From the NCBI GenBank assembly GCA_963803825.1, contig CAWDOJ010000011.1:211170-275169 (forward strand): DNA of 64,000 bases, in the 5' to 3' direction. The DNA is from an uncultured Verrucomicrobiae bacterium. GTDB lineage: Bacteria; Verrucomicrobiota; Verrucomicrobiia; Chthoniobacterales; JAATET01. Below the pieces are notes generated by a model. The model was given only the letters and a program-made list of their open reading frames with translations, was not told where the DNA came from and made no database searches. Shown here in pieces: positions 6,483 through 63,136 of the stretch. Position 1 is the first letter of the stretch, and every line of letters starts with the position of its first letter. The translations under genes and the position numbers were made by a program.

Positions 6483-6524
6483 ACATTTCCTTCACTCATC
6501 CTTCACACCCTTCCAAAACCACCC

Positions 6525-16208: not shown

Positions 16209-16462
16209 GCCGGGGACCCTATCCAAGGATTTACCCACCAAGCCAGCAAGTTGACTCGCTCGCTCCCGGTCGGCGTTGCGGGCCCAACCGCTCTGCCCCT
16301 CGGACTGCGCTTCTGAGCCGACGCAGCCCGCCGCGAGCCTCCCCAAGCTCCGGTTCTCACGGAGCGGCAAAGTCCAATCGCTGACCCCGCCAGAGGGCGA
16401 AGATTCCAACTGCACTCACAACCACCCACCCCACCCCCGCCGATCCCATCCCAACAGATTCC

Positions 16463-33569: not shown

Positions 33570-33577
33570 CTAGCGGA

Positions 33578-34675: not shown

Positions 34676-34679
34676 GGGT

Positions 34680-35882
34680 TCAGCGCTTGCGGTTCGAGGG
34701 GTTTCCAAGGCTCTTGGTGAGCAACAGGTCCTCGGGACTGGAACTATCGATCTCGATCGGCAAAAATAGCGAGAGGGAAAGTCCACCTTTTTCGTTGATC
34801 CGCGCGGTCAGCGACCCCCCGTGGTGGCGGACGATGAAGTAGCACGACACGAGAAAGACCCCGAATTCGCGCGGATTGGATCCGCGCAAATTGAAGGGAT
34901 GCAGCAGGCTTTCTGGGCAAGTGTGCTGTGCCACCGGGACAAAGTCGTCAAATTCGATGAGCGCTCCGAGCACCTCGCCATCGACCACGTTGGCCCCGAT
35001 GGTGAGGTGGACCACGCTCTCCGCTGGCAGGGAGACGATCTCTTCCGCGATCATGAAGCGGAAAAGTTTCGCCATCTGGTCCGCCGACGCGTAGATCCTG
35101 GGCGTCGCCGGGTCGGTGAGCTTTTGGATCGCGAGCTTTTTCTGGTTGCGGATCACCTCGGTCTCGACCAAAGCCCGCGTCGCGAGCTCGTCCAGATCCA
35201 ACCAACTGAGCTCATCCCTTTTGGCGGGCTGACTCACCTGCTCGAGGTCCTTCAACGTCTGAGCGACGTCGTAGAGGTGGTCGCGAGTGCTGCGAACAAA
35301 GTCGAGGGGAAGGTCCGGAGTGCCGGAGGTGTTTTTCAGCAATTGCTCGATCACGAAAGTCAACGGGCAGAGCGCGTTGTGAATGTAGTGCCCGATTTTT
35401 GCCGACACCATCCCAACGTCCAGGACTCGATCTTCGAGGATCTTCGTCCGCAATTCGTCAAATTTCGTCGCGACGAGCTCGGCCTCCGTGGCTTGCTGTT
35501 CGTGCAATTCGATCGCGTTTTCAATGACGGTCTCCAACTCGCCGAGATCCCACGGCTTCGAGACAAAAGAGTACACTGCGCCCGAATTAATCGCTTCGAC
35601 GAGCACCGATTGTTCGGTGTAGGCGGTCGTCAAGATCCGGACCACCATCGGGTACTCTTCGCGGACTCGCTTGAGCAGATCCAGACCACTGGCGTCGGGC
35701 ATGCGCTGATCCGTCACCAGCACGCCAATCTCCCCCTCGAGCGTCTCGAGCAATCGAAGCGCCTCCGCTGCCGAGCCAACCGAATGAACGGGGAAGCGAT
35801 CTTCGAAAGCTCGCGAGAAATACTTCAAGGCAATCGCCTCGTCGTCCACCACCAGCACGCCTTTGCCTAGGATTCCCTTCAT
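34680..35882 (-). CDS. receiver fused to a divergent histidine-kinase-like domain (PhcR-like architecture)
   Basis: REC of the RpfG/PhcQ type: VLVVDDEAIALKYF...LVTDQRMPDASGLDLL...RILTTAYTEQ...SKPW. Then IGHYIHNALCPL (H-box-like) and a weak ATPase lobe (EFGVFLVSCYFIVRHHGGSL). Confidence 0.7.
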   Translation of the reverse strand: MKGILGKGVLVVDDEAIALKYFSRAFEDRFPVHSVGSAAEALRLLETLEGEIGVLVTDQRMPDASGLDLLKRVREEYPMVVRILTTAYTEQSVLVEAINSGAVYSFVSKPWDLGELETVIENAIELHEQQATEAELVATKFDELRTKILEDRVLDVGMVSAKIGHYIHNALCPLTFVIEQLLKNTSGTPDLPLDFVRSTRDHLYDVAQTLKDLEQVSQPAKRDELSWLDLDELATRALVETEVIRNQKKLAIQKLTDPATPRIYASADQMAKLFRFMIAEEIVSLPAESVVHLTIGANVVDGEVLGALIEFDDFVPVAQHTCPESLLHPFNLRGSNPREFGVFLVSCYFIVRHHGGSLTARINEKGGLSLSLFLPIEIDSSSPEDLLLTKSLGNPSNRKR

Positions 35883-36970
35883 ACGGTTTTTGTGGGAGCA
35901 AGACCCGCGAGGTCCGCCCGGCTGAATTGCTCGCGCAGCGCCTCGATCACCTCATCTGCCGCGACGTCATCGCCGCCGAGGTCAAATTCAAATTTCTCCA
36001 TCTTACCGGAGATCACCAAGCGCCCGCGCACTAGGGCCAGAGCGAACAGCGATCTCAACAGATGCACCGCCGTGGCGCTAGATTCCTTCTCCGCCAAAAC
36101 CCCGCCGAGAGAGCGAGCCAGGACCGCCCGCTCGACGGTCGCTTCCTTGAGCGACACTTCCGCAATCGCGCCGTTGGTCTCGGAACGAATCGAGTTCTTT
36201 TCTAGCCCGAGACTCTCCGCCATCGCGGCAGCCAGATCGCTCACGGCACCCGCAACCCGATCTTCCCCCGAGCCGCCCGCCGTCCGCACGGACTCGATGG
36301 CGTCGAGACAGGTGATCGCATTCGCGTACTCACCGGCAACGAGGCGGTGGATGTCGAAGTCGGCCGCGCTGGTCCCCGCAGCCGTCTTTGATCCCGCTGG
36401 ATTCAATTGGCTCGGGAGCACCTCGATCATCGCCGTCACGGCTCGCCGTAGACCGGCTTGTTCATCGGTCGCCCAACCGCGCGAGGCCAGCAGCAGCCAC
36501 TTCACGCGGTCGCTACAAAGCACCCGCTGCAGCGTGCTCATCTTCACGCCGAGCAGCTCGTCACGCTCCGTCAACACGTGATGATAGTCCGCCGCACGCT
36601 GCAGCACCATGCCGAGGTCCGGGACCTCCCAGGGCTTCACGACGTATTGATAAATGTGGCCCCGGTTGACGGCCTGGATCGCGCTCTCGAGATCGGAATA
36701 CGCCGTGGTGAGAATCCGGACGACGTGCGCGTATTCGTTCCGCACGATCTCGAGCAACTCAGCACCGAGCATTTCCGGCATGCGCTGATCCGAGATGACG
36801 ATGGCGATCTTGTCGGGATCGCGACGCAGTATCTCCAGACCCTCCTGGCCGGAGGTCGCGGTGAAAATCTCGAACTTCGTCGAGAAGGCGAGGCGAAAAT
36901 ATTTCAACGCCTTTTCTTCGTCGTCGATGTAGAGGATGCCGGTTTTGCGGCTGGATGGATTTGTTAGCAT
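35879..36970 (-). CDS. receiver domain protein with uncharacterised ~230-aa C-terminal domain (PhcQ-like architecture)
   Basis: The ATG at 36970 gives MLTNPSSRKTGILYIDDEEKALKYF...VISDQRMPEMLGAELL...RILTTAYSDL...VVKPW. I recognise no motif in the C-terminal half. Confidence 0.7.
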   Translation of the reverse strand: MLTNPSSRKTGILYIDDEEKALKYFRLAFSTKFEIFTATSGQEGLEILRRDPDKIAIVISDQRMPEMLGAELLEIVRNEYAHVVRILTTAYSDLESAIQAVNRGHIYQYVVKPWEVPDLGMVLQRAADYHHVLTERDELLGVKMSTLQRVLCSDRVKWLLLASRGWATDEQAGLRRAVTAMIEVLPSQLNPAGSKTAAGTSAADFDIHRLVAGEYANAITCLDAIESVRTAGGSGEDRVAGAVSDLAAAMAESLGLEKNSIRSETNGAIAEVSLKEATVERAVLARSLGGVLAEKESSATAVHLLRSLFALALVRGRLVISGKMEKFEFDLGGDDVAADEVIEALREQFSRADLAGLAPTKTV

Positions 36971-39582
36971 GAGATTAAGGCCGACTCGGCCAGCGGGAGT
37001 TCGATGGTGAAAAGTGCCCCGCCTTCGGGCGGATTTTCCGCTCGGATCACCCCTCGGTGCGAATGGATAATTGTATGGCAGATACTTAGTCCCATTCCCA
37101 TTCCAGAACCGACGTCCCGGGTCGTGAAAAATGGATCGAAGATTCGGCTGATGATGTCTTTCGGTATACCGGGGCCGCTGTCTCGCACCCGCAGGACCGC
37201 CTGATCGCCGACCGTATCTCCGGAGATCCAAACGACGCGTTCGCCCGGCAGATTGGCTTCGCTCATCGCGCGATTCGCGTTATTGAGCAGATTAATGAAG
37301 ACGTGCATGAGCTGCGTCTTCTGGCCGCGCAGCTGCAAGCCGTCGGGGAGATCGATATCGATCCGCACACCCTCCATTTCGCCGGCGACGATCTTCATTG
37401 CGTTGCGGAGCAATTCCGCCACCGCTACGTCCGACTCCGTCCCGGCCTTCTCGGGGAAAGCAAACGTCTTGAGATCGGTCACCACGTCGCGGATGCGAGT
37501 CATCCCTTCCTCAACGTCGTCAAAAATATCCTGCATTCCTTCGGACAGCGTGTCTCGCGACATCTTTGCGACGCTCATCGCCGTGAGGGTGTAGTTGAGA
37601 GGGTTGTTGATTTCGTGCAGCAACCCAGCCGACATCGAGCCGATTGCGTTCATTTTTTCGCTCTGAATGAGCATCGTCTCCGTATCACGCAGCTTGCCGA
37701 AAGTCGCCGTGAGTTCATCGTTTTTCGTCCGGAGATCGCGTTGCATCTGCCCGGCGCGAAGGAGATTCCGCACCCGGGTCCGCACCTCGATGCTGCTGAA
37801 AGGCTTGGTGAGAAAATCGTCCGCTCCAGCTTGCAGCGCGTCGATCTTCGACTCTTCGTCCGCCCGCGCCGTGAGTAGCACGATCTTCAGATCGCGATTC
37901 GCGTCGTGGGCCCGCAGCGTCTGGCAGAGCTCCAGTCCGTCCTTGCCCGGCATCATCCAATCCAGCACGACGAGATCGGGGCGGTGCTTCGCGACGAGTT
38001 CCTCGACGTTCCCGCCGTGCTGCGTCTGGACAACGCGGTAGTCCTCCGCCAACAGCGACACGACGTAGCGCCGCATGTCGTGCTCGTCGTCGGCGACTAA
38101 CACGACCTGGGAACCCGATCCAACCTCGGGCAGCTCCACGTCCGCCGAGTCGTCGTAGGTCCAACTCCGATCCGCCGACCGAAACGCCTTCTCAAAAGGC
38201 TCCTCGAGATCGTCCAATGCGACGCGATCCATCGGCTCGGACTCGACCGCTGCCGCCCCCGTGGCCGGCAGAGTGACCCGAAATGCGCTCCCCTCGCCGA
38301 CCACGCTCTCGACGCCTAACGTGCCGCCGTGCTGCTCGACCAATTCCTGCGCGAGCGCCAAGCCGATGCCAACCCCTTGATTCTGATTCGCAGCGTTACT
38401 TTTGACTTGGTGGAATCGGTCAAACACGCGCGCAAGGTCCTCCGGCGGAATACCGACGCCGGTGTCCGCTACTTCGAACCAAAAACCGCCCGCCTCAACG
38501 GCACCTGATCGCACGGCGATCGAGCCGCCTGCGGGGGTGTACTTCATCGCGTTCGTCAGCAGGTTGAGTAGCACTTTTTCGATCCGCGCTGGGTCGAAGT
38601 CGGCCCGCAGGTCGCCCGGCCCACTCTCGATTTTGATCCTCAGCCGCTTCGATAACCCCAGGTGGCGCACGGATTCAATGATCCCGCTCAGAAACTCGTC
38701 GACGTCTACCGTCTTTCGGCGCAAGACGTCCACGCCTTGATCCATCCGCGTGAGATCGAGAAGATCGTTGATCAACTTCAGCAACCGCAGCGTATTGCGC
38801 TGAACCACGATCATCGTCCCGTGGATCGCCGGATCGAGTTGATCCGCCCGACGCAACAAATCTGCTACCGGACTCAGAATGAGAGTCAGCGGCGTCCGCA
38901 ACTCGTGGCTGACGTTGGAAAAAAACTGCGTTTTGAGGCGGTCGAGATCGCGCAGCTCCCGGTTGCGTTCGTCGAGCTGATGCCGCAGGCGGAATTCTTC
39001 GAACCTCGTTTTCGAGAGATACCACGTCATGCCGATGCAGACCGCCGTTGTTATCACCAGAAAGAACCCGCCAAATCCCAAGGCTTCGTAGCCCCCGGCG
39101 TCGGCGAAATCCGGATTCAACACGCACGCTACAACGTACGCTGCGAGCGAGACCACGCACATGATGATCGTTTCGAGAACGGTCCACGGCGAGACGATCG
39201 CCCAGCAAGTCAAGATCAAGGTGAGGCCCGCGTGGTAGGGTGAGGTCGCCCCGTCCGTGCGGAAGATCATGAACGTCATCGCGAAGTTGATCGTCAACGC
39301 CGACAGCACACCGAGAGCTTTCACGCCAGCCAACGATCCCCTCCGCCGGGCTAGCAAAAGCAGTGCGCTCAAAACGACGAGCACAAGATCGGCCCCAAAC
39401 CGGAGGGCCAAAAATTCGCCGAAGTGATCGGGATACAGGAAGTAATCGAGCACGAACCCTCCGGGCAGGGCTACCATTGCCACCCCGTTCATCACGAGAA
39501 GGCTCCGTGACAATCGACCGACGCTCTCGCGGCGGTAGGCGCCCCGAAGCTCGGCATTCGATTTTTCGACTTTGGTCGTCAT
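36964..39582 (-). CDS. membrane sensor kinase with HK-REC-HK architecture (N-terminal half PhcS-like)
   Basis: The ATG at 39582 gives MTTKVEKS. About 6 hydrophobic helices; SHELRTPLTLI plus HATPase (DTGVGI, GVGIGLALA); REC (VVLVADDEHDMR...VVLDWMMPGKDG...LLTA...KP); second H-box LLHEINNPLNY plus a second HATPase (DSGPGI, GMGMGLSI). Confidence 0.8.
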   Translation of the reverse strand: MTTKVEKSNAELRGAYRRESVGRLSRSLLVMNGVAMVALPGGFVLDYFLYPDHFGEFLALRFGADLVLVVLSALLLLARRRGSLAGVKALGVLSALTINFAMTFMIFRTDGATSPYHAGLTLILTCWAIVSPWTVLETIIMCVVSLAAYVVACVLNPDFADAGGYEALGFGGFFLVITTAVCIGMTWYLSKTRFEEFRLRHQLDERNRELRDLDRLKTQFFSNVSHELRTPLTLILSPVADLLRRADQLDPAIHGTMIVVQRNTLRLLKLINDLLDLTRMDQGVDVLRRKTVDVDEFLSGIIESVRHLGLSKRLRIKIESGPGDLRADFDPARIEKVLLNLLTNAMKYTPAGGSIAVRSGAVEAGGFWFEVADTGVGIPPEDLARVFDRFHQVKSNAANQNQGVGIGLALAQELVEQHGGTLGVESVVGEGSAFRVTLPATGAAAVESEPMDRVALDDLEEPFEKAFRSADRSWTYDDSADVELPEVGSGSQVVLVADDEHDMRRYVVSLLAEDYRVVQTQHGGNVEELVAKHRPDLVVLDWMMPGKDGLELCQTLRAHDANRDLKIVLLTARADEESKIDALQAGADDFLTKPFSSIEVRTRVRNLLRAGQMQRDLRTKNDELTATFGKLRDTETMLIQSEKMNAIGSMSAGLLHEINNPLNYTLTAMSVAKMSRDTLSEGMQDIFDDVEEGMTRIRDVVTDLKTFAFPEKAGTESDVAVAELLRNAMKIVAGEMEGVRIDIDLPDGLQLRGQKTQLMHVFINLLNNANRAMSEANLPGERVVWISGDTVGDQAVLRVRDSGPGIPKDIISRIFDPFFTTRDVGSGMGMGLSICHTIIHSHRGVIRAENPPEGGALFTIELPLAESALISC

Positions 39583-40977
39583 CCCTCTTTTCGAACCGTC
39601 AGAAATACGTTCACCCCGGTCTCGTCGGGAAAGACCTCGGAGTCTGCTCCCTTCGGCGCGAGGGAGAGGAGGTGGTTTTCGTCCCGGTAGACCAGAAACC
39701 ATTCGAGCAGATGCTCCATCAGGTAGCGTTCGGGGTTGTTCGGATGCACGTTTGTCGCGACGAGTAACCCACCGGGCCGCACCCAATTGTGATAGAGCTG
39801 GAGCAGATTGCGGCAAACGTTGTCCGGGAAATAATCGAACAAGCCCGCGCAATAAATCATGTCGTAGCTCGGCAGAAATCCTTCCTCCTCGAAGTGAATA
39901 TTCTTGAGCAGATCATCGACCGATTTCTGGATGAATTTGATCGTTGGCTTACGCCCACTTTCGTTCGTTGCCGCCTGCATCCGGCTCGTGACGTAGGCCA
40001 GCGTCTCGTCGTTGAAGTCCATGAGGTGCAGCGCACTTTCGTTGGCGAGATCGTTGTTCCGAATGAACCGCTGGATTTCTACCGCGGGTCCGCACGCGAT
40101 CGTCAGCACGGTGAAGATACGCTGCTCCTCGGTGACGCGCTCGGCCTCTTCGCCGAGCAGGCGCTCGAGGATGGTGATGCGGTTGCGATGCGCCACGCAG
40201 GCCGCCACGCTGGACGTGATGTCGTGAAAGATCCGCGCGTAAGTGTTCGTGCCGGTCGTCGCGGACTCCTGCAGCATCATGTTCACCATCTCGTAGTCAC
40301 CCGCGTAACCCAGCGGCTTGAAAAACGTCCGCCACACGAACGGCGCCGCCAGCATGTACGGGTGCATCTCGCGGCGGGCAAACGCCTTGTAGGCACTCGC
40401 GTCCTCTTCCGGCACGTCGGCAGCAGCCTTTTGAAAGAGATCCAACAGATCGCCGACCTTCCGTGTCAGCGGCGCTTCCAACGACTGGCGAAACGCCGAC
40501 GCGCGATCGGAGTCGATCTTCTGGTCGCCGACGATCGCCGTCTCGGCCTCCTCGATCCAGCGACTCGTCTCCGCGAGGAAGTTCGAGAATTTGTTCACCG
40601 CGAGCTGGTAGCCCTCGGCCAGCTCCAGGCCCTCTTCCCAATCCTGAATGAACTTATCCAGCTCCTCGCCGAGCGCTGCGCCTGGCTCGAGGTGGTCGAG
40701 CGCGTTCCACGCGTCGATCAGCGTGACCGACGCGATCACCATGAGGCCCGTCGCGACCAGACTGGTGACCACTCCGCGGCCTCGATAGATCACCCGTTCA
40801 CCCCGCATCACCGAGAAGCTCTTGGAGCACCTCGCTGAGCTGGATGAGCGAATACGGATTGTAGACCTCGAAGACGGCGATCGTCCGCGAGATGTGGACG
40901 AGGGTCCCTCGTCCGTTGAGTCCAGCCGTGTTCGTAAATGCCACGACGCTGTCGATGCCCGCTAATGCCTTTTCCAC
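39579..40977 (-). CDS. PhcB-like class I SAM-dependent methyltransferase; +1 break near 40813 joins an unlisted 59-codon ORF to the listed ORF
   Basis: Listed ORF 39579..40811 contains KPLGYAGDYEMVNMM, motif I VLTIACGPAVE, LHLMDFNDE, YDMIYCAGLFDYF and VRPGGLLVATN. An unlisted ORF, GTG 40977 to TGA 40798, reads VEKALAGIDSVVAFTNTAGLNGRGTLVHISRTIAVFEVYNPYSLIQLSEVLQELLGDAG. It has GC-rich third positions. Removing one G near 40813 fuses it in frame (...ELLVMRGERVIYRGRGVV...). Confidence 0.6.
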
Positions 40978-40995
40978 AATTCGATTTCCGAGGGT

Positions 40996-43900
40996 TTAGT
41001 TTTTCCAGATTTTTTCGGCGGCCATCGCGGCCATTTGCTGAACGTTTGGTCCCTTGAGGAGTTCCATCGCGGAAAAACTCACGCCGATGCGCTCCTTCAC
41101 TCCAAGTCCAAGCTCGAGAACCATGAGCGAATCCACGCCCATTTCGTTCAGCCTCCGATTCACCGGCACGGAGTCCTTCGCCATTCGCAAGGTCTTGGCG
41201 AGCACCTCTTGGAGGTGGTCCTCCATCACCCGCAACCGCCGCTCCGGGGAAGCTCGCGGAGTGTTCCCGCCGGAGTTCCGACGCTACTCCGCCACCGCCC
41301 GCTTCCCCGGCGCCGCGCATCTCCGCAAACCGCGAATCGCCCGCGATTCTCGGATTCGCCTCGCGCCACCGGTCCCAGTCTACGAGAAACGCGCCGACTT
41401 GCGCCGACCCCAGACCAATCGCTTTCTCCAGAGCCGCGAAAGCTTCCGCGTTCGTTAAGCCCGTGATTCCCGCTGCCACCAAGGCCGCTTCGATCCGCTT
41501 GTCCTGCGCGACGATCCCGGACTCGGCCAGCGCGCCAAGATTCAGAGACGTCGCCGGCACTCCGCGACTTCGCAACCAACGCGCGAGCCCGTCCAACGTC
41601 GCGTTTGCCGCGACGTAGTTCGTCTGACCGGCGTTTCCGATGAGCGCCGACACCGACGAATAGAAAACGAAGAAATCCAAACCCGCGTCTTCGCCCAAAG
41701 CCTCGGCTAGGTTCCAAGCCCCCGCTACTTTCGGCAGAAAGACCCGGCGAAACCGCTCTTCCGTCAGGTCTGCGATCCCCACGTCGTCGAGCACGTTGGC
41801 CCCGTGCACGATCCCGCGAAGCCGGAACGGATCGGTCCGCCCGGCCTCGATCAACCCGCGAGCCGCACCCGGGTCCGTCACGTCCGCTGCCAGCACCTCG
41901 ACCTCCGTCCCTTGCGATCTTGCGAATGCCAAAGTCTCCTCCATCCCGGTTGCCGCGGCACCCGACCGACTTGCAAGGATCACCTTCCCTGCCCCCCGCT
42001 CCGCCAACCACCGAGCGGTCGACAACCCGAATCCCGCCGTCCCTCCGGTCACGATGTAACACCCATCCCGCTGGACGACAGGCTCGCCGCCCAGCGGAGC
42101 GATGACCTCGAGTTCGCCATCGGCAAAATCGATCAGCAATTTTCCGACCTGCTCGCTCCGGGCCATCAGCCCGAACGCGTCCGCGATCTCTTTCGCCGGG
42201 AAAACTCGCGGAGCTGAGAATTCGAAATCTCCCTTCGCAAGGTGTGCAAACACGGCCTCCAGCGTCCGGCGGACGACTTCGGGGCGCTCGAGCGCCAGCT
42301 GGTCCATGTCCACCGCCGCGAAGGTGAGGTTGTGACCGAAAGCCCGCATCGGCAGCCCGTTGTCTTCGGCGATGTCCTTCTTCCCAATCTCGACGTAGCG
42401 CCCCCCGTCCGCAACGTTCCCAGCCCCGCGTGCATTGCCGGCCCGGTCTGCGCGCCGATCACCACGTCCACGCCCTGGCCTCCCGTCGCCTCGCGGATCC
42501 CAGTCGCGAAGTCCAAAGTCCGCGACGAAAACACGTGCCGCACACCCGTCTCGCGCAAGGCCAGCCGTTTCTCTTCCGAACCCGCCGTTGCAAAGATCTC
42601 CGCGCCGATCCACCGGGCGATCGCCATCGCCGCCTGCCCCACGCCCCCCGTCGCGTGGTGAATGAGCACCCGCTCGCCCCGCCGCAGCCGCCCGACTTCC
42701 AGTAGGCCGTAATACGCCGCCCCAAAGACGACCGGCACCGCCGCCGCCGCCATTCCCAGACCATCCGGGATGCGAACCACCGATTCCGCGCCGACCGTAG
42801 CGTAGGTGCGAAAGCTGTCCCGCGTCATCACCACGACCTGGTCGCCCTCGACGAACCCGGTCCCGGGTCCAACGCGCACGACCACGCCCGCGCACTCCAT
42901 CCCGATCGCCGACCCGGTCACCGTGCCCTCCAGCGCCAAGGGATGCAGTCGACCCTCGATCTTGAGCAAGTCTTTGTAATTCAGGCCCGCTCGGTGCACC
43001 CGCACCTCGACCTCGCCGTCGCCGGGGGCGATTCGCTCCGTGCTTTGGAAATGAAGCGAGTCCAGTTTGCCCTTCACCCCCACGACCAACCGCACCGCCG
43101 AGTCGACCGACTCCCACCGCCGCTCCGGTTCGACCGGCTTGTCGGCCAGCGCCGCAATCCGCCGCTCGCAGCGCACACCGTCGCGGTAGACGATCTCGCC
43201 GCTCGATCCCGCAGCGAGTTCGGCGGCGACCCACTCCGCTCCGCCGGATGCGGGCAGGCCGATCGACCGAGCCGTGACGTGGTCGAGTTCGTTCTGAGCG
43301 ACCAGCGCGACTGCGGCGAGACCACTGGTCGCCCAACCGCCCGCGTCCCGCGTCACAAAAGTCACGTCCCGCGGGTTGTCCAGAGCGGTGACCAAGCGGA
43401 CGATTTTCTGATTCAGCGCCAACACTTCCGCCACCGGATCGCCCTTCGACCGTCGCGTCCCCCACAAGACCACGAGCCGACCCCGATCCGTCTCCGCGCA
43501 ACCGAGAATCGCGCCCGGCAAAGTCGCTTGAATCTCGTGGCACAACTCGAAGTCAGAATCCTCTTCGTCCGCGAGGATCGCCACATCGCTGCCGTCGATG
43601 GAGCGCTGCACAGGCGGCAACTCGATCGGTCGCATCGCGACTTCGTGCAGCCATCTCTTCCCAGCGTCGACCAACTTGGAATCGATCAACTGCAATGCCA
43701 TCCGGTGCGCGTGCGCCAGCACCTGCCCGTCGCCATCGAGCAACCAAACGTTTGCCGTCAGCCGCGATTCCGATCGCTGCGTCAACACCCCGTAGGCGTA
43801 GACCGCAGGAGACTTCGGCCGTGCGTGATACGTGAACCGCTCGATGGAAAATGGCACGAAGAGCCCCGCCTGCCCGGAACGGTAAAGAATCGGCTGGATC

Positions 43901-46900
43901 GCCGCATCGAAGAGCGTCGGGTGCAGCGGGTGCCCGACCTCCCCCACCACCGCCGCCGCGTCCAATTCGAGCAGATACGTCCCGTCGCCCAGCCGCACCT
44001 CCGTCGTCGGTCGAAACGCCGGTCCGTAGTGCAAGCCCCGCCGCTCCAGGTCGTCGTAGAAAACGTCGACCGCCAACGATTCCCCGCAGCCGCCTCGCAG
44101 CTTTGCCAGGTCCAGCCGCTCCTCCGCCAGCTCCGCTTGCGGCGACATTCGCCCGCGACAATGCCGCGACACGCCGTCCTCCCCCTCGGTCCGGCTGGAG
44201 ATCGTGAACCGCCCGGCCTCCGGATCGTGCTCCGTGAGTAGGTATTGCAGCTTCGCCGGATCGACCACCAGCACTCGCTCGAAGCTCACGCTGTCGAGCA
44301 CGACCGACGCCGTTCCGTTCACCTCCGCGCTCAACGTCAGCGCAGCGTCCACGTAGCCCAATCCCGCAAACACCGTCTGGTTTTGCACGCCGTGGTCCAT
44401 CAGAAACGGGAAATAATTTCGATTCACCTCGACCTCCCAGCACGCCGACGGCCCGACGACCGGCGTGCTCAGATACACCGGTCCGTCCCCGGCACCGAGC
44501 CGCTCGATCTCCGAGCGCTCCGACTCCACCCAGTGCCGCTGGCGCTGCCACGGATACTGAGGCCCGGCCACGAGCAGACCCCGCTCCGGGGCGAAGACCC
44601 GCCAATCCAAAGCCTTCCCCGCGCAGTCCAGCTCCGTCGCCGTCTGCTGCAGCCGCTCGATCTCCCCTTCCTTTCGCCGGAGCGACACGAAGCCCGCGAC
44701 GCGCGCATCCCGCGCCGCCGCGCATTCCTTGATGGAATTTCCCAGCACCGGGTGGGGCCCGATTTCCAGAAATTGCGACCAACCCGCCGCAAACATCGCC
44801 GCCATCGCGTCCGCAAATCGCACCGATTGCCGCACGTTTTTCCACCAATATTCCGCCGTCCATTCCCCGCCCTCCGACGCCTCCCCGCTCACCGTGGAAT
44901 AAAGCGGCAGCCGCGCCGCTTTCGGCGCCAGCGACCGTAGCGCGTCCAGGATCTCCTCCCGGATCGGGTCCATCTGCGGGCTGTGATACGCCACTTCGAC
45001 CCGCAGAAATTTCTGAAAAATCTCCGCCGCCTCGAGTTCCGCCGCCACAGCTTCCAGCTCCGGCCGGTCCCCCGACAACGTCACCGCGCTGAAGCTATTC
45101 ACCGCCGCGACCGACACCCCCGCCCGACCCCGCAGATACGGCGCGACGTCCGCCTCCGACAACCCCACCGCTAGCATCGCCCCCCGACCCGCCGTCGTCT
45201 GCTGCAATCGGCTGCGATGGTAGCTCACCAGCACCGCTTCCTCCATCGTGTACACCCCCGCCGCCCACGCCGCCGACACCTCACCCACGCTGTGACCCAC
45301 CACCGCCGTTGGCCGGATCCCCCAGCTCTCCCACAGCCGGACGAGCCCGACCTGCAGCGCGAAATTCGCCGGCTGCGCCACCTCCGTCCGCTCCATCCGC
45401 GACTCCGCCTCCGGAGCCAACATCGCCTCGCGCACCGACCACCCGGCCAGCTTCTCAAAATATCCGTCCACCTCCGCGACCGCTTCGGCGAACACCGGCT
45501 CGTTCTCGATCAGCTCCCGGCCCATCGCCCACCACTGCGGCCCCATCCCGGTGAAGACAAACGCCAGCCCGCCGCTCCCAGCCACCCCCGTCACGACCCC
45601 CTCGTGCGTCTCGCCCGTCGACGCAGCGATGAGGCGCTCCCGCAACTCCTCCGCGCTCCCCGCCCTCACGACGCAGCGCGTCGCCAAATGACCCCGCCGA
45701 AACGCGAGGGTGTGCGCCAGATCGTCCAGCGCTCCCGTTTTTCCCCGTCCCAGCAAAAACGCCCACTTCCCTGTCAGATCTCGCAACCCCGCCTCGTTTG
45801 CCGCCGAGAAGGGGAACATCTGGACCCCCCCGCGTTCTTCCGTAGGCGGTGCGCCCGCACTCGCCAACCCCGGAGCCGACTCCAGCAGCACGTGCGCATT
45901 CGTCCCGCCGTACCCGAAGCCGTTCACCCCCACGAGCAGCGATGCGCGATCCTCGACCCCCGGCAGATCTGTGACCTCGGTCACGATGCGCAGGTTGTAA
46001 TCCTCCCAAGGGATCTTCGGATTCGGCGTCTTGAAATGCAGATTTCTCGGGATCTGCCGGTGCTTGAGCACGCCGATCGCCTTCAGCATTCCCGCCACGC
46101 CCGCCGCCGCCTCGAGGTGGCCGACGTTCGTCTTGACCGATCCGACCAGCAGCGGCTCCGTCCGCCCAACCGAGAAGTTTTCATCCAGCGCCGCCAGCTC
46201 CGCCGGATCCCCTGCCTGCGTCCCCGTCCCATGCGCCTCGACGTAGTCCACCGTCCCCGGCGCGACGCCGGCCCGCTCGTAAACCTCCCGCACCAACCCG
46301 CTCTGCGCCGATCCACTCGGCAGCGACAAGCCCTCCGTGCGCCCGTCGCTGTTCACGCCCGATCCACGGATCACCGCGTGAATCGGATCCCCGTCCGCCT
46401 GCGCCCTCGCGAGAGATTTGATGAGAAACACTCCCGCGCCCTCGCCCCGCGCGTAGCCCGCCGCCGATTCGTCGAAGGCGTGGCACTCCCCGTGGTGCGA
46501 AAGAAAATGCCCCTTACTCATCAGCACCGGGTACTCGGGCCGGGTCATCACGTTCACCCCACCCGCTAGCGCCATGTCCGCCTCACCCGCCCGCAAGCTC
46601 TGGCAGGCGTAGTGTATCGCCACCAAGGACGACGAACACGCCGTGTCCAGCGTGAGACTCGGCCCCCGCAGGTCGAAGGCGTGCGAGAGCCGATTCGACA
46701 GCACCGTCATCATCACTCCGCCCGGCGCGTGCGCGTCCATCAAGTGCTGATTGCTCGGTTGCGCTCGCAGCAGCAAATGATCCAGGCAAAATCCCCCCAC
46801 GAACACCCCGGTTCGCGACCCGGCCATCCGCTCCACCGGCAATCCCGCATCCTCGAACGCCTCCCACGTCGACTCCAGCAACAGGCGCTGCTGCGGATCC

Positions 46901-47256
46901 ATGCTCGCCGCCTCCCGAGGGGTGATCCCGAAGACCAGGGGGTCAAATTGCCGCACGTCCTGATCCAGCCAGGCGCCCTTCGGTGCGTAAGTTTTCCCGG
47001 GACGCGCCGGATCCTCGTCCCAATACCGCCGCCAATCCCAACGGTCTGACTTGATCGGCTTCAACGCGTTTCCGCCCTTGAGGAGGAAACGCCAGAACGC
47101 CGTGAGCGAATTGCCACTCGGCGGCATCCGGCAGCCGATGCCGATGATGGCAAACCGATCAGACACATCATCATCTTCAACCACGCCGAAGGGGTCTATC
47201 AGGAAACTCTTGTTTTCACCAAGCGCCGATCTGAGAAAACAGCGTCCGGGCAGCAA
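40996..47256 (-). CDS. single-module fully reducing type I polyketide/fatty-acid synthase, KS-AT-DH-(psiKR)-ER-KR-ACP; breaks near 42412 and 41245-41275
   Basis: KS: DTACSSSL (Cys codon 46636-46638), EAHGTGT, NVGH. AT: GHSVGE (Ser codon 45289-45291). DH: LMDHGVQNQTVFAG (His codon 44392-44394). ER: LIHHATGGVGQAA. KR, in the frame of ORF 40808..43543: VTGGTAGFGL...YSSVSALIGNAGQTNYVAAN. ACP, ORF 40996..41235: GVDSLM (Ser codon 41128-41130). The ORF ends 27 codons after the ACP helix region, with no TE domain. Confidence 0.85.
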
Positions 47257-56138: not shown

Positions 56139-56444
56139 ATGGGAAATCTTACGAAACGCGATCTCGTCATCCGGATCAGCAACGAAACCGGCCAGGTTCA
56201 ACAGGACGTCTTCGCGGTCGTTCAGAGAACACTCGATCACATCACCGACGCCCTCGCGGACGGTCACAACGTCGAACTCCGCAATTTTGGCGTCTTCGAG
56301 GTCAAGCTCACCAAGTCCCGGGTCGGTCGCAACCCGAATAAGCCCGCCGACGACGTCGTCATCCCCGCTCGCGCCACGGTCAAATTCAAGGCCGGCAAAG
56401 TCATGCGCCAACGCGTCCTCATGCTCACCGACACGATGAAGTAG
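56139..56444 (+). CDS. HU/IHF family DNA-binding protein
   Basis: LTKRDLV..IS......Q.DV....... then RNFGVFEVKLTKSRVGRNPNKPADDVVIPARATVKFKAGK, the beta-arm signature. Confidence 0.85.
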   Translation: MGNLTKRDLVIRISNETGQVQQDVFAVVQRTLDHITDALADGHNVELRNFGVFEVKLTKSRVGRNPNKPADDVVIPARATVKFKAGKVMRQRVLMLTDTMK

Positions 56445-56559: not shown

Positions 56560-59500
56560 GTGCCAAAAACCATCCGTATCCGCGGCGCCCGTCAGAATAA
56601 TCTACAGGGCATCGATCTCGACCTTCCGCTCGGTCAATTCATCGTCCTCACCGGACCCAGCGGCAGTGGCAAGAGCTCCCTCGCCTTCGACACCATCTAC
56701 GCCGAAGGCCAGCGCCGCTACGTCGAGACCTTCAGCCCCTACACGAGGCAATTCCTCGACCGGATGGACAAGCCGCAGGCCGATTCCATCGAAGGCATCC
56801 CGCCCGCCATCGCCATCGAGCAAGCCAACCACGTCAAATCGACCCGCTCGACCGTCGGCACGATCACCGAGATCAACGATTACCTGAAACTTTTCTTCGC
56901 CCGCGCGTCCAAGGCCCAATGTCCCGATTGCGCCCGCCCAGTCTCCCCCGAGACTCCGCAATCGATCGCGCGCGCCGTCGCCAAAGATTTTGCCGACCAG
57001 ACGATCCTGATCACCTTCCCCGTCCCGCTCGGCGAAGCCAAGTCGAGTTCCGCCAGGGACTTCTTCGAATTTCTCAATTCCCAAGGCTACCTCCGCGTCT
57101 TCCTCAACGGCGAAACGCACCGCACCGACGAACCCCCATCGAAGAAAAAGCTCCCCCCCATCGTCGACGTCATCCAGGACCGCATCGAAGTCAAAAAGGC
57201 CAACCAGACCCGCCTCTCCGAAGCCATCGAGACCGCCCTGCGCTTCGGAAAAAACCGCCTCACCGTATTTTCTACCACCCCAGAGTCACCCCTAACCACC
57301 CACCCGTATTCATCCACCTGGCACTGCGCCCACTGCGACCTCGACATCCGTCCGCCATCCCCGGGCCTCTTCACCTTCAATAACCCGCTCGGTGCCTGCC
57401 CCGCCTGCCGCGGCTTTGGTCGGGTGATCGGGATCGATCTCAACCGCGTGATGCCCGACCGGTCCCTCAGCCTCGCGCAGGGCGTCATCAAGCCCTTCCA
57501 GACCGGCCATTCCAAAGAATGTCAGGCCGACTTGATTCGCCACGCGTCGCGCAACGACATCGACCTGCACATTCCCTTCGAAGATCTCCCGGAATCGGAC
57601 CAACGCTGGGTGATCGAGGGTGAAGGCGACGCCGACACGACCGCTGACGAGATCTGGGACTCTGGCGCTTGGTACGGGATCAACGGGTTCTTCAAGTGGA
57701 TGGAATCCAAGGCCTACAAGATGCACATCCGCGTCTTCCTGGCTCGCTACCGCAGCTACCAACCTTGCCCGACCTGCGAAGGCGGACGCTTCCAGCCGGA
57801 GACGCTCAATTTCCGTCTCCACCCCACGGGCCTGACCCTCCCGGAAGTCGCCCGCACGTCCGTCGACAAGCTCATCCCGCTGTTTCGAGACGTCACCATG
57901 CCCCCGGGCGATCCTAGCTCGGAAGCTCCTCCGCACCCAGATCTCGTCCCGCCTGGGGTACCTAGCGGAAGTCGGCCTCGGCTACCTTTCCCTCGACCGC
58001 CCGACCAAGTCCCTCTCCGGCGGCGAGATCGAGCGCGTCAATCTCACGACTTGCCTCGGCGCGTCCCTCGTCAACGCCCTCTTCGTCATGGACGAACCCA
58101 GCGTCGGCCTTCACCCGCGCGACACGGGGCGATTGGTCAAGATCATCCACGCCCTCCGCGACAAAGGCAACACGCTGCTCGTCGTCGAGCACGAGGAATC
58201 CATCATCCGTGCCGCCGACCACCTCGTCGACATCGGTCCGGGCCGCGGCAAGGAAGGCGGCAAGCTTGCCTACTCCGGCCCCCTCATCGACATCTCCGAC
58301 CCATCGTTCGACACGTCGACGTCCCTGACCGCCGAATATCTGCAGGGCAAGAAATTCATCCCGGTCCCCGAAGACCGCCGCGAACCCCTCGAGTTTATCG
58401 AGATCGAGGGCATCACCCACCACAACATCAAGAATCTCGATGTCCGTCTTCCGCTCGGCGTTTTTTGTTGCGTCACCGGCGTTTCCGGTAGCGGTAAGTC
58501 CACCCTCATCCACGACGTTTTGTATCGCCAGATCACCGGCGAAGGCGTCGACGATCAGGAGCAGGCCGGACAATGCAAGGGAATCGACGGGGCGGAAGAC
58601 ATCGACGAGATCGTCATGGTCGACCAGTCGCCATTGGCCCGCAGCCCGCGCTCGACGCCCGCCGTCTACCTCGGCGCGTTCGACGCGATCCGCGCGCTCT
58701 TTGGCGGCACTGAGGAAGCCATCCAAGCCGGATTCTCCCCGTCCACTTTCTCGTTTAATTCCGGGAACGGTCGCTGCGAGCGCTGTGCCGGTCTCGGCTT
58801 CGAGAAAGTCGAGATGCAGTTCCTCTCCGACCTCTTCCTCCGCTGCCCCGAGTGCGACGGCAAACGCTACCAACCCCAGGTCCTCAAGATTCACGTCGGC
58901 GGGAAGACGATCATCGAGATTCTGGAAATGACCGTGAAAGAGGCCCTCGCCTTCTTTGCGGAACTCCCCGCCGGCGGCAAGCGCGCTACCCGTGGGCGCG
59001 GCGGCTACGTCGCCCCGCACTCCGCGATCATCGACCCGCTTCAGCTGATGGCGGACGTCGGACTTGACTACCTCTGCCTCGGCCAGCCGCTCAACGTGCT
59101 CTCCGGCGGCGAATCCCAGCGGCTGAAGCTAGTGAAGCACCTCGTCGAGCAACGCGACGAGAGCGCTCTCCTCATCTTTGACGAACCCACCACCGGCCTC
59201 CACATCGACGACGTCGCGGGTCTCCTCGGGGTCTTCCAGCGCCTTGTCGAGGAAGGCAACAGCTTGCTCGTCATCGAGCACAACCTCGACGTGATCAAAT
59301 GCGCTGATTGGGTCGTCGACCTCGGCCCCGAAGGCGGCGACGAAGGCGGTCAACTCGTCGCCGAAGGCACTCCCGAGCAAGTCGCCGAAGTCGAGGCCAG
59401 CCACACCGGACGCTTCCTGAAAGAAATCTTCTCCGGAACGTGCGCCCCGCTTCCAGCCGGCAGCCAACCCAACCGCCCAGCGCAAACTCCCGCCTCCAAC

Positions 59501-62098
59501 TGCATCTCCGTCCGCGGCGCCCGCGAACACAACCTCAAGGACATCTCCATCGACATCCCGCGCGACAAGCTCGTCGTTGTCACCGGCATGTCCGGCTCCG
59601 GGAAGTCGACCCTCGCATTCGACATTCTCTTTGCGGAAGGCCAGCGCCGCTTCCTCGACAGCATGTCGCCCTACGCGCGGCAGTTTGTCGACCAGCTCGA
59701 GAAGCCCGAAGTCGACTCCATCGAAGGCCTCCCACCCTCCGTCGCCATCGAGCAGCGCGTCACCCGTGGCGGCGGCAAGTCCACCGTCGCCACCGTCACC
59801 GAGACCTACCATTTCCTCCGCCTCCTCTTCGCGAAGGTCGGCCTCCAGTATTGCCCCGACTGTCACGTCCCCGTCGCCAACCAGACTCTCAGCGCCATCA
59901 CCACGCAGGTCCGCGAGATGGCGGGCAACGACAATCTGAAGATCTTTGCGCCGCTCGTGAAAGCTCGCAAAGGCTTCCACACCGACGTCGCCAAATGGGC
60001 CGAGAAACAGGGCTTCGCCACCCTCCTCGTCGACGGAAAGATGACCGCAGTCGACGGCTTCGAGAAGCTCGAGCGCTTCAAAGAACACACCATCGACGTC
60101 CTCGTCGGCGAAGTCCCCACCGGCGACGAGAAGAAGGCCGAAGAACTTGTCCGCCGCGCCCTCAAGATCGGCAAAGGCACCGCCCGCATCCTCGATCAAA
60201 GGAAGAAATTCCACCTCCTCAGCACGGAGATGAATTGCCCGAGCTGCTCCCGCTCCTTCGAGCCACTCGATCCCCGCCAATTTTCCTTCAACAGCCCGCA
60301 CGGCTGGTGCGAATTCTGCCGAGGCTTCGGCGAGATCTGGAAATCCAACGTCACCGACAGCAAAGACTTCGATAGCCAACTCGAAGCCGACCTCGCCGAA
60401 GAGCGTTCGTTCGAGCGCGCCGAGTCCGACGAGTCCCGGCCCTGCCCGGAATGCGAAGGCGCGCGCATCAATGACGTCGCCCGCTCGGTCCACGTCGGCA
60501 AGCACACCGTCGCCGATTTTATCAAGGCCCCCGCCGAGGACGCCCTCGTCCTCATCGCGGGCCTCAAGTTCGGCAAGAACGACGGCCGCATCGCCAAGGA
60601 CATCCTCGCCGAGATCTCCCAACGGCTCGAGTTCCTCACCATCGTTGGGCTCGACTACCTGAGCTTGGATCGTAGCGCGAAGACGCTGTCCGGTGGTGAA
60701 TCTCAGCGCATCCGTCTGGCCGCCCAGCTCGGCAGCAACCTTCGTGGCGTCCTCTACGTCCTCGACGAACCCACGATCGGCCTCCACCCCCGCGATAATC
60801 ACAAGCTCCTCGAAGCTCTCGAGCGCCTCTCGGGTAACGGAAATTCCCTCGTCATCGTCGAGCATGACGAGGACACCATGCGCCGCGCCGACCACATCAT
60901 CGACCTTGGTCCCCGCGCCGGTCGCAACGGCGGCCAAGTCATCACCGCCGGCAACATCGATGAGATCATGGCCTGTGCCGACTCGCTGACCGGGCAATTT
61001 CTCCGCGACCCGATCAAGCATCCCATGGTCGGCCCCCGCCGCCCGCTCGAAACGGTCAAAGATTGGATCACCGTCAAAGGAGCCTGCAAAAACAACCTCA
61101 AGGAGATCGACGTCCGCATCCCACTGCACCGCCTCACCGTCGTCTCCGGCATCTCCGGATCCGGGAAATCCACGCTCGTCCGCGGTGTCCTCGTCCCCGC
61201 CGTCCGAGCTGAACTCACCCGTGGCAAACGCAAGCTCCGGTCCGAGGATTGGGACAGCGTGCACGGAGTGGATAAGATCGGTGCCGTCCTCGAAGTCGAC
61301 CAGTCGCCCATCGGAAAGACCTCCCGCTCCACCCCCGCGACCTACATCAAGGTCCTCGACGAGATTCGCAAGGTCTACGCTCAGCTCCCCGACGCCCGGA
61401 TGCGCGGCTACACGGCCTCGCGTTTCTCTTTCAACAACGAAGGCGGCCGCTGCGAAAATTGCCAGGGCCAAGGCGTCATCAAGCTGGAGATGACCTTTCT
61501 CCCCACGACCTACATGCCCTGCGAAGAATGCCACGGCAAACGCTACAACGCCCAGACCCTCGAAGTCCTCTTCGACGGCAAAAGTATCGGCGACGTCATG
61601 GAGATGACCGTCGACCAAGCCGCCGAATTCTTCGCCAGCATCCCGAAGATCAAGCGCTCTCTCGATCTCCTCGTCGAAACTGGTCTTGGCTACCTTCAAC
61701 TTGGCCAAGCTAGCCCCACCCTCTCCGGCGGAGAGGCGCAGCGAATCAAACTCGTCACCCAGCTCGCCCGACGAGCCACCCCCAAGGCCGAAGCCCTCCG
61801 CACCACGCGCATGGGCAAAAGCACGCTCTACGTCCTGGAGGAACCCACCATCGGCCTGCATACCGCCGACGTCGCCAACTTGATCTCGGTCCTTCACCGG
61901 TTAGTCGAAGAAGGCGGCACGGTCGTCGTCATCGAGCACCACATGGACGTCGTCGCCGAGGCCGACTACCTCGTCGACGTCGGACCGGAAGCCGGGGTGA
62001 AAGGCGGCGAAATCCTCGCGGCCGGCACCCCCGAGCAGGTCGCGACAGCCAAACGATCCCGCACGGCTCCGTTCCTTAAGGAAGCTTTGGATAGGTGA
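56560..62098 (+). CDS. uvrA: tandem double UvrA-like ABC ATPase (two complete UvrA units in one reading frame); +1 break at 57913
   Basis: Four Walker A motifs: [66 protein letters not shown]. Four signatures: [36 protein letters not shown]. CxxC zinc modules occur in both units. Unit 2 starts near 59500 ([16 protein letters not shown]). ORFs 56560..58491 and 58088..62098 join at PPGD|[17 protein letters not shown]. Confidence 0.85.
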
Positions 62099-62457
62099 TG
62101 ATCCGAACATAAGGTCCCGAAGGAAACAAGAAGGGGTGAATGCATTCCCCCTCGAAGCCGTATCCTTCGTGACCTGGTGTTTCGACAGACGCGTCCCATT
62201 CACGGCCCCGGCGAAGGCCTGCGAGATCGGCGATCGTGCCGTTCTCCCGGAACACCGACGCCCCCCCGTAGCGGGACAGAGCTTGGCGGATGATGGGGTC
62301 GACGGGCGTGAGGCCTCTCCCATCGACCCACGACCGAAGGGACCTTCAAAATTGGCCACCATCTGGCCGATTTGCTCCCGTATCCAACCAAAGCCACCGC
62401 GCCACGCGATCTCCCTTGAATAAACGATTGCCAAGCACCGCTTTAACAAATCCAAAC

Positions 62458-62892
62458 ATGAAAAATACCACCCTACCACTTCTCGCAGCAGTTTCCGCCG
62501 CAAGCCTCGCCCTCACCGCTTGCGTCACCGAGCGCGTCATCGAGTCGGACCCAATCGATACGTCCGTATCCACCACTCGTTCCGTGACGTATGAGCCCGG
62601 CTACACGACCCAAAGCCTCCCGACGGGCTACACGACCCGCACCGTTTCCGGGAGCCAATATTACGTCGCGGACGACGTGTATTACACGCGCGGAGCGGGC
62701 GGCTACACGGTCGTCACCGCACCCGACATTACGTCCAGTGCTACCGTCGATCCCACCGGTCCCGGCTACATCGACACTCTCCCAGTCGGCTACACAACCC
62801 GCAATTACCAAGGCACCGACTACTACTACTCCGGCGGGCAGTATTACCGGCAGGATCCCCAAGGCTACGTCGTCACGACGAGTCCCTTCTAG
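62458..62892 (+). CDS. Tyr/Thr-rich lipoprotein with an internal duplication
   Basis: The ATG at 62458 gives MKNTTLPLLAAVSAASLALTAC (lipobox). Two modules: LPTGYTTRTVSGSQYYVADDVYYTRGAGGYTVVTAP and LPVGYTTRNYQGTDYYYSGGQYYRQDPQGYVVTTSP. Confidence 0.6.
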   Translation: MKNTTLPLLAAVSAASLALTACVTERVIESDPIDTSVSTTRSVTYEPGYTTQSLPTGYTTRTVSGSQYYVADDVYYTRGAGGYTVVTAPDITSSATVDPTGPGYIDTLPVGYTTRNYQGTDYYYSGGQYYRQDPQGYVVTTSPF

Positions 62893-62920
62893 GTCGCGTC
62901 CACCGGATTCAAGAGCATCT

Positions 62921-62955
62921 AACCCGCGCGGCTGAAACCCGCGCGGGTTTTTCTT
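62921..62955 (+). terminator. rho-independent terminator
   Basis: aacccgcgcgg ctgaaa cccgcgcgggtt, followed by tttttc, 29 nt after the lipoprotein stop. Confidence 0.65.
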
Positions 62956-63002
62956 GTGTCCCCAACTCCGCGACACCCCCGCCCCCCCAGCGCACCTCGC
63001 CA

Positions 63003-63044
63003 AATGGACCATGAAAGTGACGGCCGTCACCTTCATGGTCCATT
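63003..63044. repeat. 42-bp loopless palindrome
   Basis: aatggaccatgaaagtgacgg|ccgtcaccttcatggtccatt. The arms are complementary at 20 of 21 positions. Word content (catgaa, gtgac) resembles the 48622 hairpin. Confidence 0.7.
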
Positions 63045-63136
63045 CGAGGGCTGGGAAGAGGTGCATTTCGGTTTCTTCATGGAGTCACCAATGAAATACG
63101 AGCTAACTCCCTCCTAATTCACAACTTATCCACAAA

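Follow-up and report, generated by a model that had tools for sequence, protein, structure and literature searches.

In Escherichia coli UvrA, residues R216 and E222 have been placed on the surface that interacts with UvrB, and mutation of R712, R722, R724 and R730 abolishes DNA binding (Manelyte et al. 2010, PMC3025350). The insertion domain of the same protein sharpens discrimination between damaged and undamaged DNA, and its UvrB-binding domain is essential (PMC3025350). UvrAs of class II are defined by a missing UvrB-binding domain (PMC3167621; PMC9328131). Electron cryomicroscopy (cryo-EM) of Mycobacterium tuberculosis UvrA showed a homodimer that turns asymmetric on damage, with one insertion domain in a 'recognition' role and the other in a 'support' role; A2B1 as well as A2B2 complexes form (PMC11985968). 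Which of these two stoichiometries the UvrA-UvrB sensor adopts is still debated (PMC7835731), as is the origin of the asymmetry by which one strand is selected and a single UvrB stays on the lesion (PMC7835731; PMC11985968). Here we describe a double-length uvrA gene at positions 56560-62098 (plus strand) of a 64,000-nucleotide stretch of contig CAWDOJ010000011.1, which belongs to an uncultured Verrucomicrobiae bacterium (assembly GCA_963803825.1); this whole stretch is called the window below.

We read the locus as a tandem, single-chain UvrA that serves as the damage sensor of UvrABC, likely as a pseudo-heterodimer, with a frame broken by a probable consensus error. To this joint reading we assign a probability of about 0.7.

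Two UvrA units in one repaired frame

As assembled, the interval does not hold one open frame. Its open reading frames (ORFs) are 56560-58491 (643 aa) and, in another frame, 58088-62098 (1336 aa); the UvrA-like translation changes frame at about 57900-57930. When the closest relatives, at 87% and 85% nucleotide identity, are aligned with the window, one extra base shows up in TCGGAAGCTCC at 57923-57925: the relatives read TCC GAG CTC or TCG GAA CTC (S-E-L), whereas the window reads TCG GAA G CTC. An earlier reading made from the sequence alone, referred to here as the original prediction, had described a single gene of 1,846 codons with a break at 57913. The break has to be moved, and the two ORFs do not form a single gene as given; deletion of the extra base does restore 1845 aa plus a stop, that is, the 1,846 codons proposed. 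The repaired protein is 94% identical to an intact 1847-aa protein. We had ourselves first put the frameshift at a C5 run (57901-57905, one C removed) before the alignment with the closest relatives moved the site.

The features of the gene are listed below by position in the window, with residues numbered in the repaired protein.

56560..62098, plus strand: tandem (double) uvrA gene, 1845 aa after removal of one extra base; GTG start, as in the closest relative
56560..59428, plus strand: unit 1 (residues 1-956), a complete class I UvrA by end-to-end alignment with B. stearothermophilus UvrA (2r6f)
56932..57324, plus strand: UvrB-binding domain of unit 1 (residues 125-255); R218/E224 (nt 57211-57231) correspond to E. 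coli R216/E222
57409..57765, plus strand: insertion domain of unit 1, between the Zn2 CxxC pairs (residues 284-402); spacer of 113-123 aa across the family
57923..57925, plus strand: frame break, one extra base (A or G), TCG GAA (G) CTC; splits the gene into 56560-58491 and 58088-62098
58691..58747, plus strand: DNA-binding patch in signature domain II of unit 1 (residues 711-729); equivalent of R712 kept, those of R722/R724/R730 replaced by I, A and T
59429..59503, plus strand: Pro/Gln/Ser-rich linker between the units (residues 957-981), in frame and poorly conserved; 20-65 aa in relatives
59498..62095, plus strand: unit 2 (residues 980-1845), a class-I-like UvrA without the insertion domain (alignment, hidden Markov model (HMM) score, predicted structure)
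59864..60235, plus strand: UvrB-binding-domain fold of unit 2 (residues 1102-1225); K1192 and R1198 (nt 60134-60154) at the R216/E222 positions, variable in the family
60320..60442, plus strand: short acidic segment of unit 2 in place of the insertion domain (residues 1254-1294), semi-conserved motif fDSxLEAeLaeER; 38-46 aa in 77/77 relatives
61367..61423, plus strand: DNA-binding arginine patch of unit 2; R1603, R1613, R1615 and R1621 correspond to E. coli R712/R722/R724/R730
61835..61846, plus strand: Walker B of the fourth ATP-binding domain, LEEP (Glu for the usual Asp), conserved across the family

In general, the layout proposed by the original prediction was borne out. The repaired translation contains four Walker A motifs (residues 32, 640, 1009 and 1530), four LSGGE signatures (residues 485, 847, 1376 and 1721) and CxxC pairs in both halves, six in each. 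Unit 2, expected near 59500 after a Pro/Gln-rich linker, begins at about nucleotide 59498, and neither a stop nor a gene boundary lies between the halves at 59429-59503. The halves are clearly diverged, as had also been stated: they are 39% identical to each other, and 43% and 48% identical to E. coli UvrA. That two units are meant to stand head to tail in one polypeptide is supported by the in-frame linker and by related loci. At least 579 of these were found in GTDB (one genome per species), of which 80 were kept; the match covers almost the whole query in nearly all of them. One uninterrupted frame of at least 1800 codons is present in 77 of 81 loci. Three of the other four are cut by contig ends, and one is interrupted though it aligns in a single frame.

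Unit 1 aligns with 2r6f over both the UvrB-binding and the insertion domain (E = 4e-240). Unit 2 aligns with the same protein in two pieces, skipping the insertion domain (E = 4e-252), and a three-way alignment that included E. coli UvrA (from NC_000913) showed that E. coli residues ~286-402 are absent from it. Whether either half keeps the UvrB-binding domain had not been clear by eye. The answer is that the fold is kept in both, since Pfam PF17760 (UvrB-interaction domain) matches both halves (E = 2.3e-14 and 5.3e-21); PF17755 (insertion/DNA-binding domain) matches unit 1 only. An AlphaFold model of unit 2 (mean predicted local distance difference test (pLDDT) 79, predicted template-modelling score (pTM) 0.71) contains a folded alpha/beta UvrB-binding domain and a single low-confidence helix where the insertion domain would be. 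The best structural matches of this model are class I UvrAs (3uwx_A, the UvrA of a UvrA-UvrB complex, template-modelling (TM) score 0.80), ahead of class II UvrA2 and Ecm16.

Family models place the protein among UvrAs as a whole and by halves. At full length it scores 2075.9 bits against NF001503 (cut-off 1147) and 2030.7 bits against TIGR00630 (cut-off 729.8), with two matched stretches in each case. The halves alone reach 993 and 1050 bits against TIGR00630; each is far above the cut-off, so chance is excluded. With NF001503 each half stays under the cut-off of 1147, at 1004 and 1080 bits. The Pfam and half-by-half NCBIfam scores come from the C5-run repair, which differs from the final one by ~8 residues at the junction.

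Each unit has the two ATP-binding cassette (ABC) nucleotide-binding domains of class I, with Walker A/B, signature and H-loop, and three zinc modules are present. The UvrB-binding domain is found in both halves, with contact residues conserved only in unit 1. The class II pattern (no UvrB-binding domain, no Zn module 1) does not fit a protein with PF17760 in both halves, which is therefore not a class II UvrA.

Compared with E. coli UvrA, the protein also carries two insertions specific to its lineage. Unit 1 has 18 extra residues, Gly/Arg-rich and poorly conserved, within its signature domain II (residues ~803-825, nt ~58967-59035); unit 2 has 11 extra residues immediately ahead of the fourth Walker B (residues ~1743-1753, nt ~61787-61819).

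Complementary losses in the two units

Conservation was studied in 77 aligned verrucomicrobial orthologues, which are ~54-95% identical to P0001, the closest relative. The ATP-handling core is kept throughout, with at least 90% conservation of the Walker A lysine, LSGGE signature, Walker B motif and H-loop histidine of all four sites. Cysteines of Zn2 and Zn3 are likewise at 90% or above, and those of Zn1 at 60-90%. Two oddities are lineage-wide, namely a fourth Walker B that reads EEP and a signature-I glutamine of unit 1 that is E or Q.

The accessory parts behave differently. In every sequence the Zn2 spacer measures 113-123 aa in unit 1 versus 38-46 aa in unit 2, so that the insertion domain, present in unit 1, is missing from unit 2 in 77/77 relatives. 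The equivalents of R216/E222 are invariant in unit 1 (R218/E224, 77/77) and variable in unit 2 (E/K/D/A/R/G and R/E/K/Q/A). For the equivalents of R722/R724/R730 the pattern is the reverse: they are invariant in unit 2 (75-77/77) and unconserved in unit 1. R712 and G502 (E. coli numbering) are conserved in both units. The UvrB-binding domains of the two units are alike in overall conservation (18-19% of positions at 90% or above), but different parts of them are conserved.

Thus, the units have degenerated in a complementary manner. The insertion domain and the UvrB-contact residues are kept only in unit 1, and three of the four DNA-binding arginines only in unit 2. The original prediction had spoken of two complete units, a description that fails on both sides. 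Judged from these sequence comparisons, the units are sub-functionalised and are not two complete UvrAs.

We propose that the tandem UvrA would act as the ATP-driven damage sensor of UvrABC nucleotide excision repair. Unit 1 would pair with unit 2, most simply inside one chain by means of the variable linker of 20-65 aa, because like-with-like pairs would each be without an essential feature. Such a pair would reproduce the canonical UvrA2 dimer and its four ATP sites as a hard-wired asymmetric pseudo-heterodimer. Having a single insertion domain and a single canonical docking surface for UvrB, it would pass damaged DNA to separately encoded UvrB and UvrC. By analogy with the M. tuberculosis homodimer, the tandem protein may fix an asymmetry of the recognition/support type in its sequence.

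A more detailed version of the proposal is possible but doubtful. The tandem protein could be the sole UvrA of these bacteria and a hard-wired asymmetric sensor, in which unit 1 carries the one UvrB docking site and the one insertion domain and unit 2 the main clamp on the DNA backbone, and it could load a single UvrB (A'A''B1). If so, it would fix in sequence an asymmetry that in canonical UvrA2 arises only transiently, on damaged DNA (PMC11985968), and would offer a natural single-chain system for dissecting protomer roles. A natural covalent heterodimer, if that is what the protein is, would let the role of each protomer be mutated separately without mixed dimers.

The frame break and other explanations

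Two further genes of the window carry frame breaks. A type I polyketide synthase (PKS) module (KS-AT-DH-ER-KR) at 40808-47256 (minus strand) is split over two overlapping frames inside its enoyl-reductase domain; the switch lies at a C6 run, 42400-42405 (...GLGTLRTGG|RYVEIGKKD), and amounts to a one-base indel. A DNA photolyase at 9871-11269 (minus strand) is likewise split, by one extra base: its N-terminal PF00875 domain is encoded in ORF 10844-11269 and its FAD-binding PF03441 domain in another frame, ORF 9871-10860. Its break lies near 10868-10880, which makes two frame-broken UV-repair genes in the window, counting uvrA. The closest relatives are metagenome-assembled genomes (MAGs) of the MFD series, presumably long-read assemblies. 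In one of them, the closest relative (locus L001), an alkaline phosphatase at 6321-7632 (minus strand) is called as two adjacent or overlapping genes of 324 and 128 aa, both matching PF00245. This suggests that frame breaks occur in the MFD assembly series too.

The extra base in uvrA is most likely an assembly consensus error and not biology. Three single-base breaks per 64 kb in otherwise intact genes fit consensus error better than three pseudogenes. Additionally, comparison with the closest relative gives ratios of nonsynonymous to synonymous substitution (dN/dS) of 0.062 for the part before the break, 0.081 from there to the end of unit 1 and 0.062 for unit 2. Values this low on both sides of the break mean that the whole gene was under purifying selection until very recently. 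If the base is an assembly error, the correct reading at 57920-57929 would be TCGGAACTCC or TCGGAGCTCC. Programmed frameshifting was ruled out because no relative is broken at that site and no slippery site is evident in the sequence. The uvrA junction pattern gave 0 matches in metagenome contigs of the Joint Genome Institute (JGI), and the gene-position index held no record of the product of the first ORF or of the HU protein encoded upstream.

Several points weigh against the reading that we prefer. The uvrA break lies outside any long homopolymer, and two of the three broken genes are UV-repair genes (post hoc p ~0.04, a rough value for random breaks by gene length); the extra base could have arisen in the organism itself, by a recent mutation. 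In unit 2 the UvrB-binding domain shows the same overall conservation as in unit 1, so unit 2 may still bind UvrB, Mfd or some other partner by a different surface. In the literature searched, moreover, we found no experiment on any tandem UvrA.

Were the frameshift real, uvrA would be a recent pseudogene or split gene in this strain. It would yield a 454-aa N-terminal fragment with an out-of-frame tail, and perhaps a 1336-aa product that starts inside the first ATP-binding domain; the unit lost would be the only one with the conserved UvrB-contact surface and insertion domain. The two ORFs of the window as given and the absence of a long homopolymer at the site speak for such an event, and the broken photolyase would fit a loss of UV repair in a dark habitat. 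We nevertheless consider it unlikely. With dN/dS of 0.06-0.08 on both sides and 94% amino acid identity to intact orthologues, the inactivation would have to be very recent. The unrelated PKS is broken too, at a C6 homopolymer typical of consensus errors, and three breaks in 64 kb would be a high density for true pseudogenes amid otherwise intact genes. The fusion itself might also be questioned, as a collapsed or chimeric join of two uvrA copies, given that the window contains indel errors. That is its only support, and the comparative data refute it, leaving it a probability close to nil: halves 39% identical cannot be a mis-assembled repeat, and the in-frame fusion recurs in 77 independent assemblies and in RefSeq isolates such as Verrucomicrobium sp. 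GAS474 (WP_093288394.1) and Terrimicrobium sacchariphilum.

If the polypeptide is accepted as continuous, its units might still not pair with each other, and like units might pair across two chains or act independently, giving a higher-order assembly. Canonical UvrA does homodimerise, and a linker of 20-65 aa permits either geometry. However, a pair of unit 1 copies would be without three of the four DNA-binding arginines on both sides, and in a pair of unit 2 copies neither partner would have an insertion domain or the conserved UvrB-contact residues. The order in which the units stand is also conserved across the family. Such arrangements appear distinctly improbable. Least plausible as regards function is that the protein is no sensor of nucleotide excision repair at all, but a UvrA paralogue with another role, for instance protection against DNA-binding drugs as in class II (UvrA2/DrrC/Ecm16). 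Paralogues with roles outside this pathway exist (PMC9328131), and unit 2 is atypical. Class II proteins, though, are without the UvrB-binding domain that both units have here, the UvrB-contact residues of unit 1 are invariant, and the predicted structure of unit 2 is closer to class I structures than to those of class II. The gene is near-universal in the phylum, in a housekeeping context beside HU, MalQ and ribonucleotide reductase. LexA, moreover, binds the promoter of a uvrA, perhaps also of the tandem type, in Verrucomicrobium spinosum (PMC4951493). We regard another role as very improbable. The covalent pseudo-dimer proposed by the original prediction is a reasonable idea and remains the best reading of the sequence.

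Surroundings, relatives and known systems

The gene of an HU-family DNA-binding protein (56139..56444, plus strand) lies 115 base pairs upstream of uvrA and is given as context only, with no functional link implied. Of 81 related loci, the 37 that most resemble the window keep this adjacency; their labels are mostly Chthoniobacterales, Terrimicrobiaceae or Spartobacteria. As in the closest relatives, uvrA is preceded by the HU gene and a 4-alpha-glucanotransferase gene. No uvrB or uvrC occurs among the window ORFs of at least 500 aa, in agreement with the original prediction, which had seen neither nearby; in bacteria these genes usually lie away from uvrA, so their absence carries no weight. 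A verrucomicrobial LexA box (TGTTC-N4-GAACA, at most 1 mismatch) was found nowhere in the window; LexA binding to a uvrA promoter is known from V. spinosum, as cited above.

Downstream of uvrA, about 1 kb (62100-63100) precedes the next syntenic block, compared with 0.3 kb in the closest relative L001. This stretch, part of which is also present at locus L002, contains an ORF (62290-62892) that matches DUF6515 weakly. An intact RecQ helicase gene lies 40 kb from uvrA (14025-16415, minus strand; DEAD, Helicase_C, RecQ_Zn_bind, RQC, HRDC and HTH_40). At 27793-39852 (minus strand) there is a dense run of hybrid histidine kinases and response regulators, including a REC-SpoIIE phosphatase and a periplasmic binding protein, which adjoins a methyltransferase and the PKS. 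The whole window (1-64000) has a very strong strand bias, with 38.4% C versus 24.8% G and a GC skew of -0.22. The skew at third codon positions is -0.49 in uvrA (plus strand); in the PKS, a gene of the minus strand, it is +0.34 when read along the coding strand. The opposite signs mean that the bias follows the DNA strand and not transcription. It is also seen in the two closest relatives (-0.16 and -0.18), but not in more distant ones.

Proteins of this kind are common in public data, where full-length homologues of 1800-1880 aa number in the hundreds. A search of 5.8 billion proteins gave full-length homologues of ~1790-1880 aa among the 120 matches listed, the best being 94%, 93% and 86% identical and 1847-1848 aa long. 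Homologues with names (Terrimicrobium sacchariphilum, Chthoniobacterales, Terrimicrobiaceae) are annotated as 'excinuclease ABC subunit UvrA'. The labels of the 80 loci kept from GTDB are nearly all from Verrucomicrobiota (Chthoniobacterales, Terrimicrobiaceae, Verrucomicrobiales, Akkermansiaceae, Roseibacillus, Luteolibacter), with three unspecific 'bacterium' labels and one Acidobacteria. The tandem single-chain UvrA is the standard form in Verrucomicrobiota and is carried by most of them.

In a profile-free scan with unit 2 against 1.84 billion cluster representatives, proteins of 1550-2340 aa fill most of the top 150, in a ranking by summed score that favours double proteins. A census of these representatives was built on local HMMs, spacer lengths and residue mapping onto E. 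coli UvrA, replacing a brittle one based on regular expressions. Its classes are approximate: 39 are of the window type, 37 have two complete units, and 19 have both units without a UvrB-binding domain, which can mean that the domain was not detected. By the same approximate, spacer-based assignment, some tandem UvrAs have the unit order reversed. Examples annotated as plain UvrA come from Verrucomicrobium sp. GAS474 (RefSeq WP_093288394.1), bacterium HR30, Chloroflexota, Planctomycetota, Fibrobacterales and Deltaproteobacteria, along with one record labelled Ca. Kinetoplastibacterium.

Across tandem proteins, the best match of a unit is the unit at the same position (1 with 1, 2 with 2) in more than 95% of cases. 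Identity between the units of one protein has medians of 34-48% across architecture classes (27-53% in individual proteins). Together, this orthology by position and the low identity within proteins show that the fusions are old.

Two groups of proteins stand apart by length. Single-unit proteins of ~950-1050 aa that resemble unit 2, with a UvrB-binding domain and a short insertion spacer, include P0232 (944 aa, 54% identical to unit 2), P0268 (957 aa), P0231 and P0251; they may be pieces of tandem genes that have been split, or genuine stand-alone UvrAs that lack the insertion domain. Three tandem UvrAs, P0123 (2334 aa), P0127 (2343 aa) and P0208 (2166 aa), extend 300-500 aa beyond two units, and both of their units appear complete.

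The window gene is an ordinary member of a widespread, already annotated double-UvrA family, and the fusion, known from several phyla, is neither new nor rare. As a gene discovery it carries little weight, double-length UvrAs being abundant and annotated as ordinary UvrA. In the literature searched we found no paper on fused, class III, duplicated or tandem UvrA. Older reviews reportedly list a class of duplicated UvrA. The useful part is the split of accessory functions between the units, held across 77 verrucomicrobial relatives, and this complementary division of labour is the only part that a specialist might find worth following up.

The nearest relatives are other verrucomicrobial tandem UvrAs (WP_093288394.1; T. 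sacchariphilum; MAG MFD03250.bin.1.133). They share the length (~1810-1910 aa), the unit order, the residue pattern and the deletion in unit 2, at identities of 54%-95%. Their genes are intact, whereas the window copy has its extra base at 57923-57925. Tandem UvrAs of other architectures share the head-to-tail fusion, the diverged halves and the positional orthology, but differ in the domain complement of each unit. There are proteins with two complete units (Chloroflexota MCY3937321.1, bacterium HR30 GBD25426.1), with the reversed order (Planctomycetota HET6203847.1) and with two class-II-like units in ~1600 aa (Deltaproteobacteria MBW2732108.1).

A long UvrA is also typical of Chlamydia, which belongs to the same superphylum (Planctomycetes-Verrucomicrobia-Chlamydiae, PVC), and is its annotated uvrA. 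That type (NF001885 / PRK00635) and the window protein are both a double-length 'excinuclease ABC subunit A', but ours falls outside the equivalog. Against the 1809-position model NF001885 it scores 1185.9 bits with a cut-off of 3054 and is not a member. The best stretch runs from residues 5-1041 to model positions 6-1000, and only the first ~1040 residues are colinear.

With class I UvrAs (E. coli; B. stearothermophilus 2r6f/3uwx; M. tuberculosis 3zqj and 9ga3-5) each unit shares the tandem ABC core, the three zinc modules and the UvrB-binding domain, and unit 1 alone shares the insertion domain. Class I proteins have ~940 aa and homodimerise, whereas here two units stand in one chain. Unit 2 is without the insertion domain and conserved UvrB contacts, unit 1 is without three DNA-binding arginines, and the fourth Walker B reads EEP. 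Class II UvrAs (Deinococcus radiodurans UvrA2 2vf7, DrrC, Ecm16 7sh1) have the ABC core and zinc modules in common with the window protein and are likewise paralogues with altered accessory domains. They are without the UvrB-binding domain and keep the insertion domain (PMC3167621; PMC9328131); unit 2 is the converse.

The closest parallels to the individual losses are engineered. The natural deletion in unit 2 essentially coincides with that of E. coli UvrA delta290-400, and the loss of R216/E222 in the same unit resembles the interface mutant R216A/E222A (PMC3025350). Unlike in these mutants, the natural defects hit one unit only, and the other unit keeps the features.

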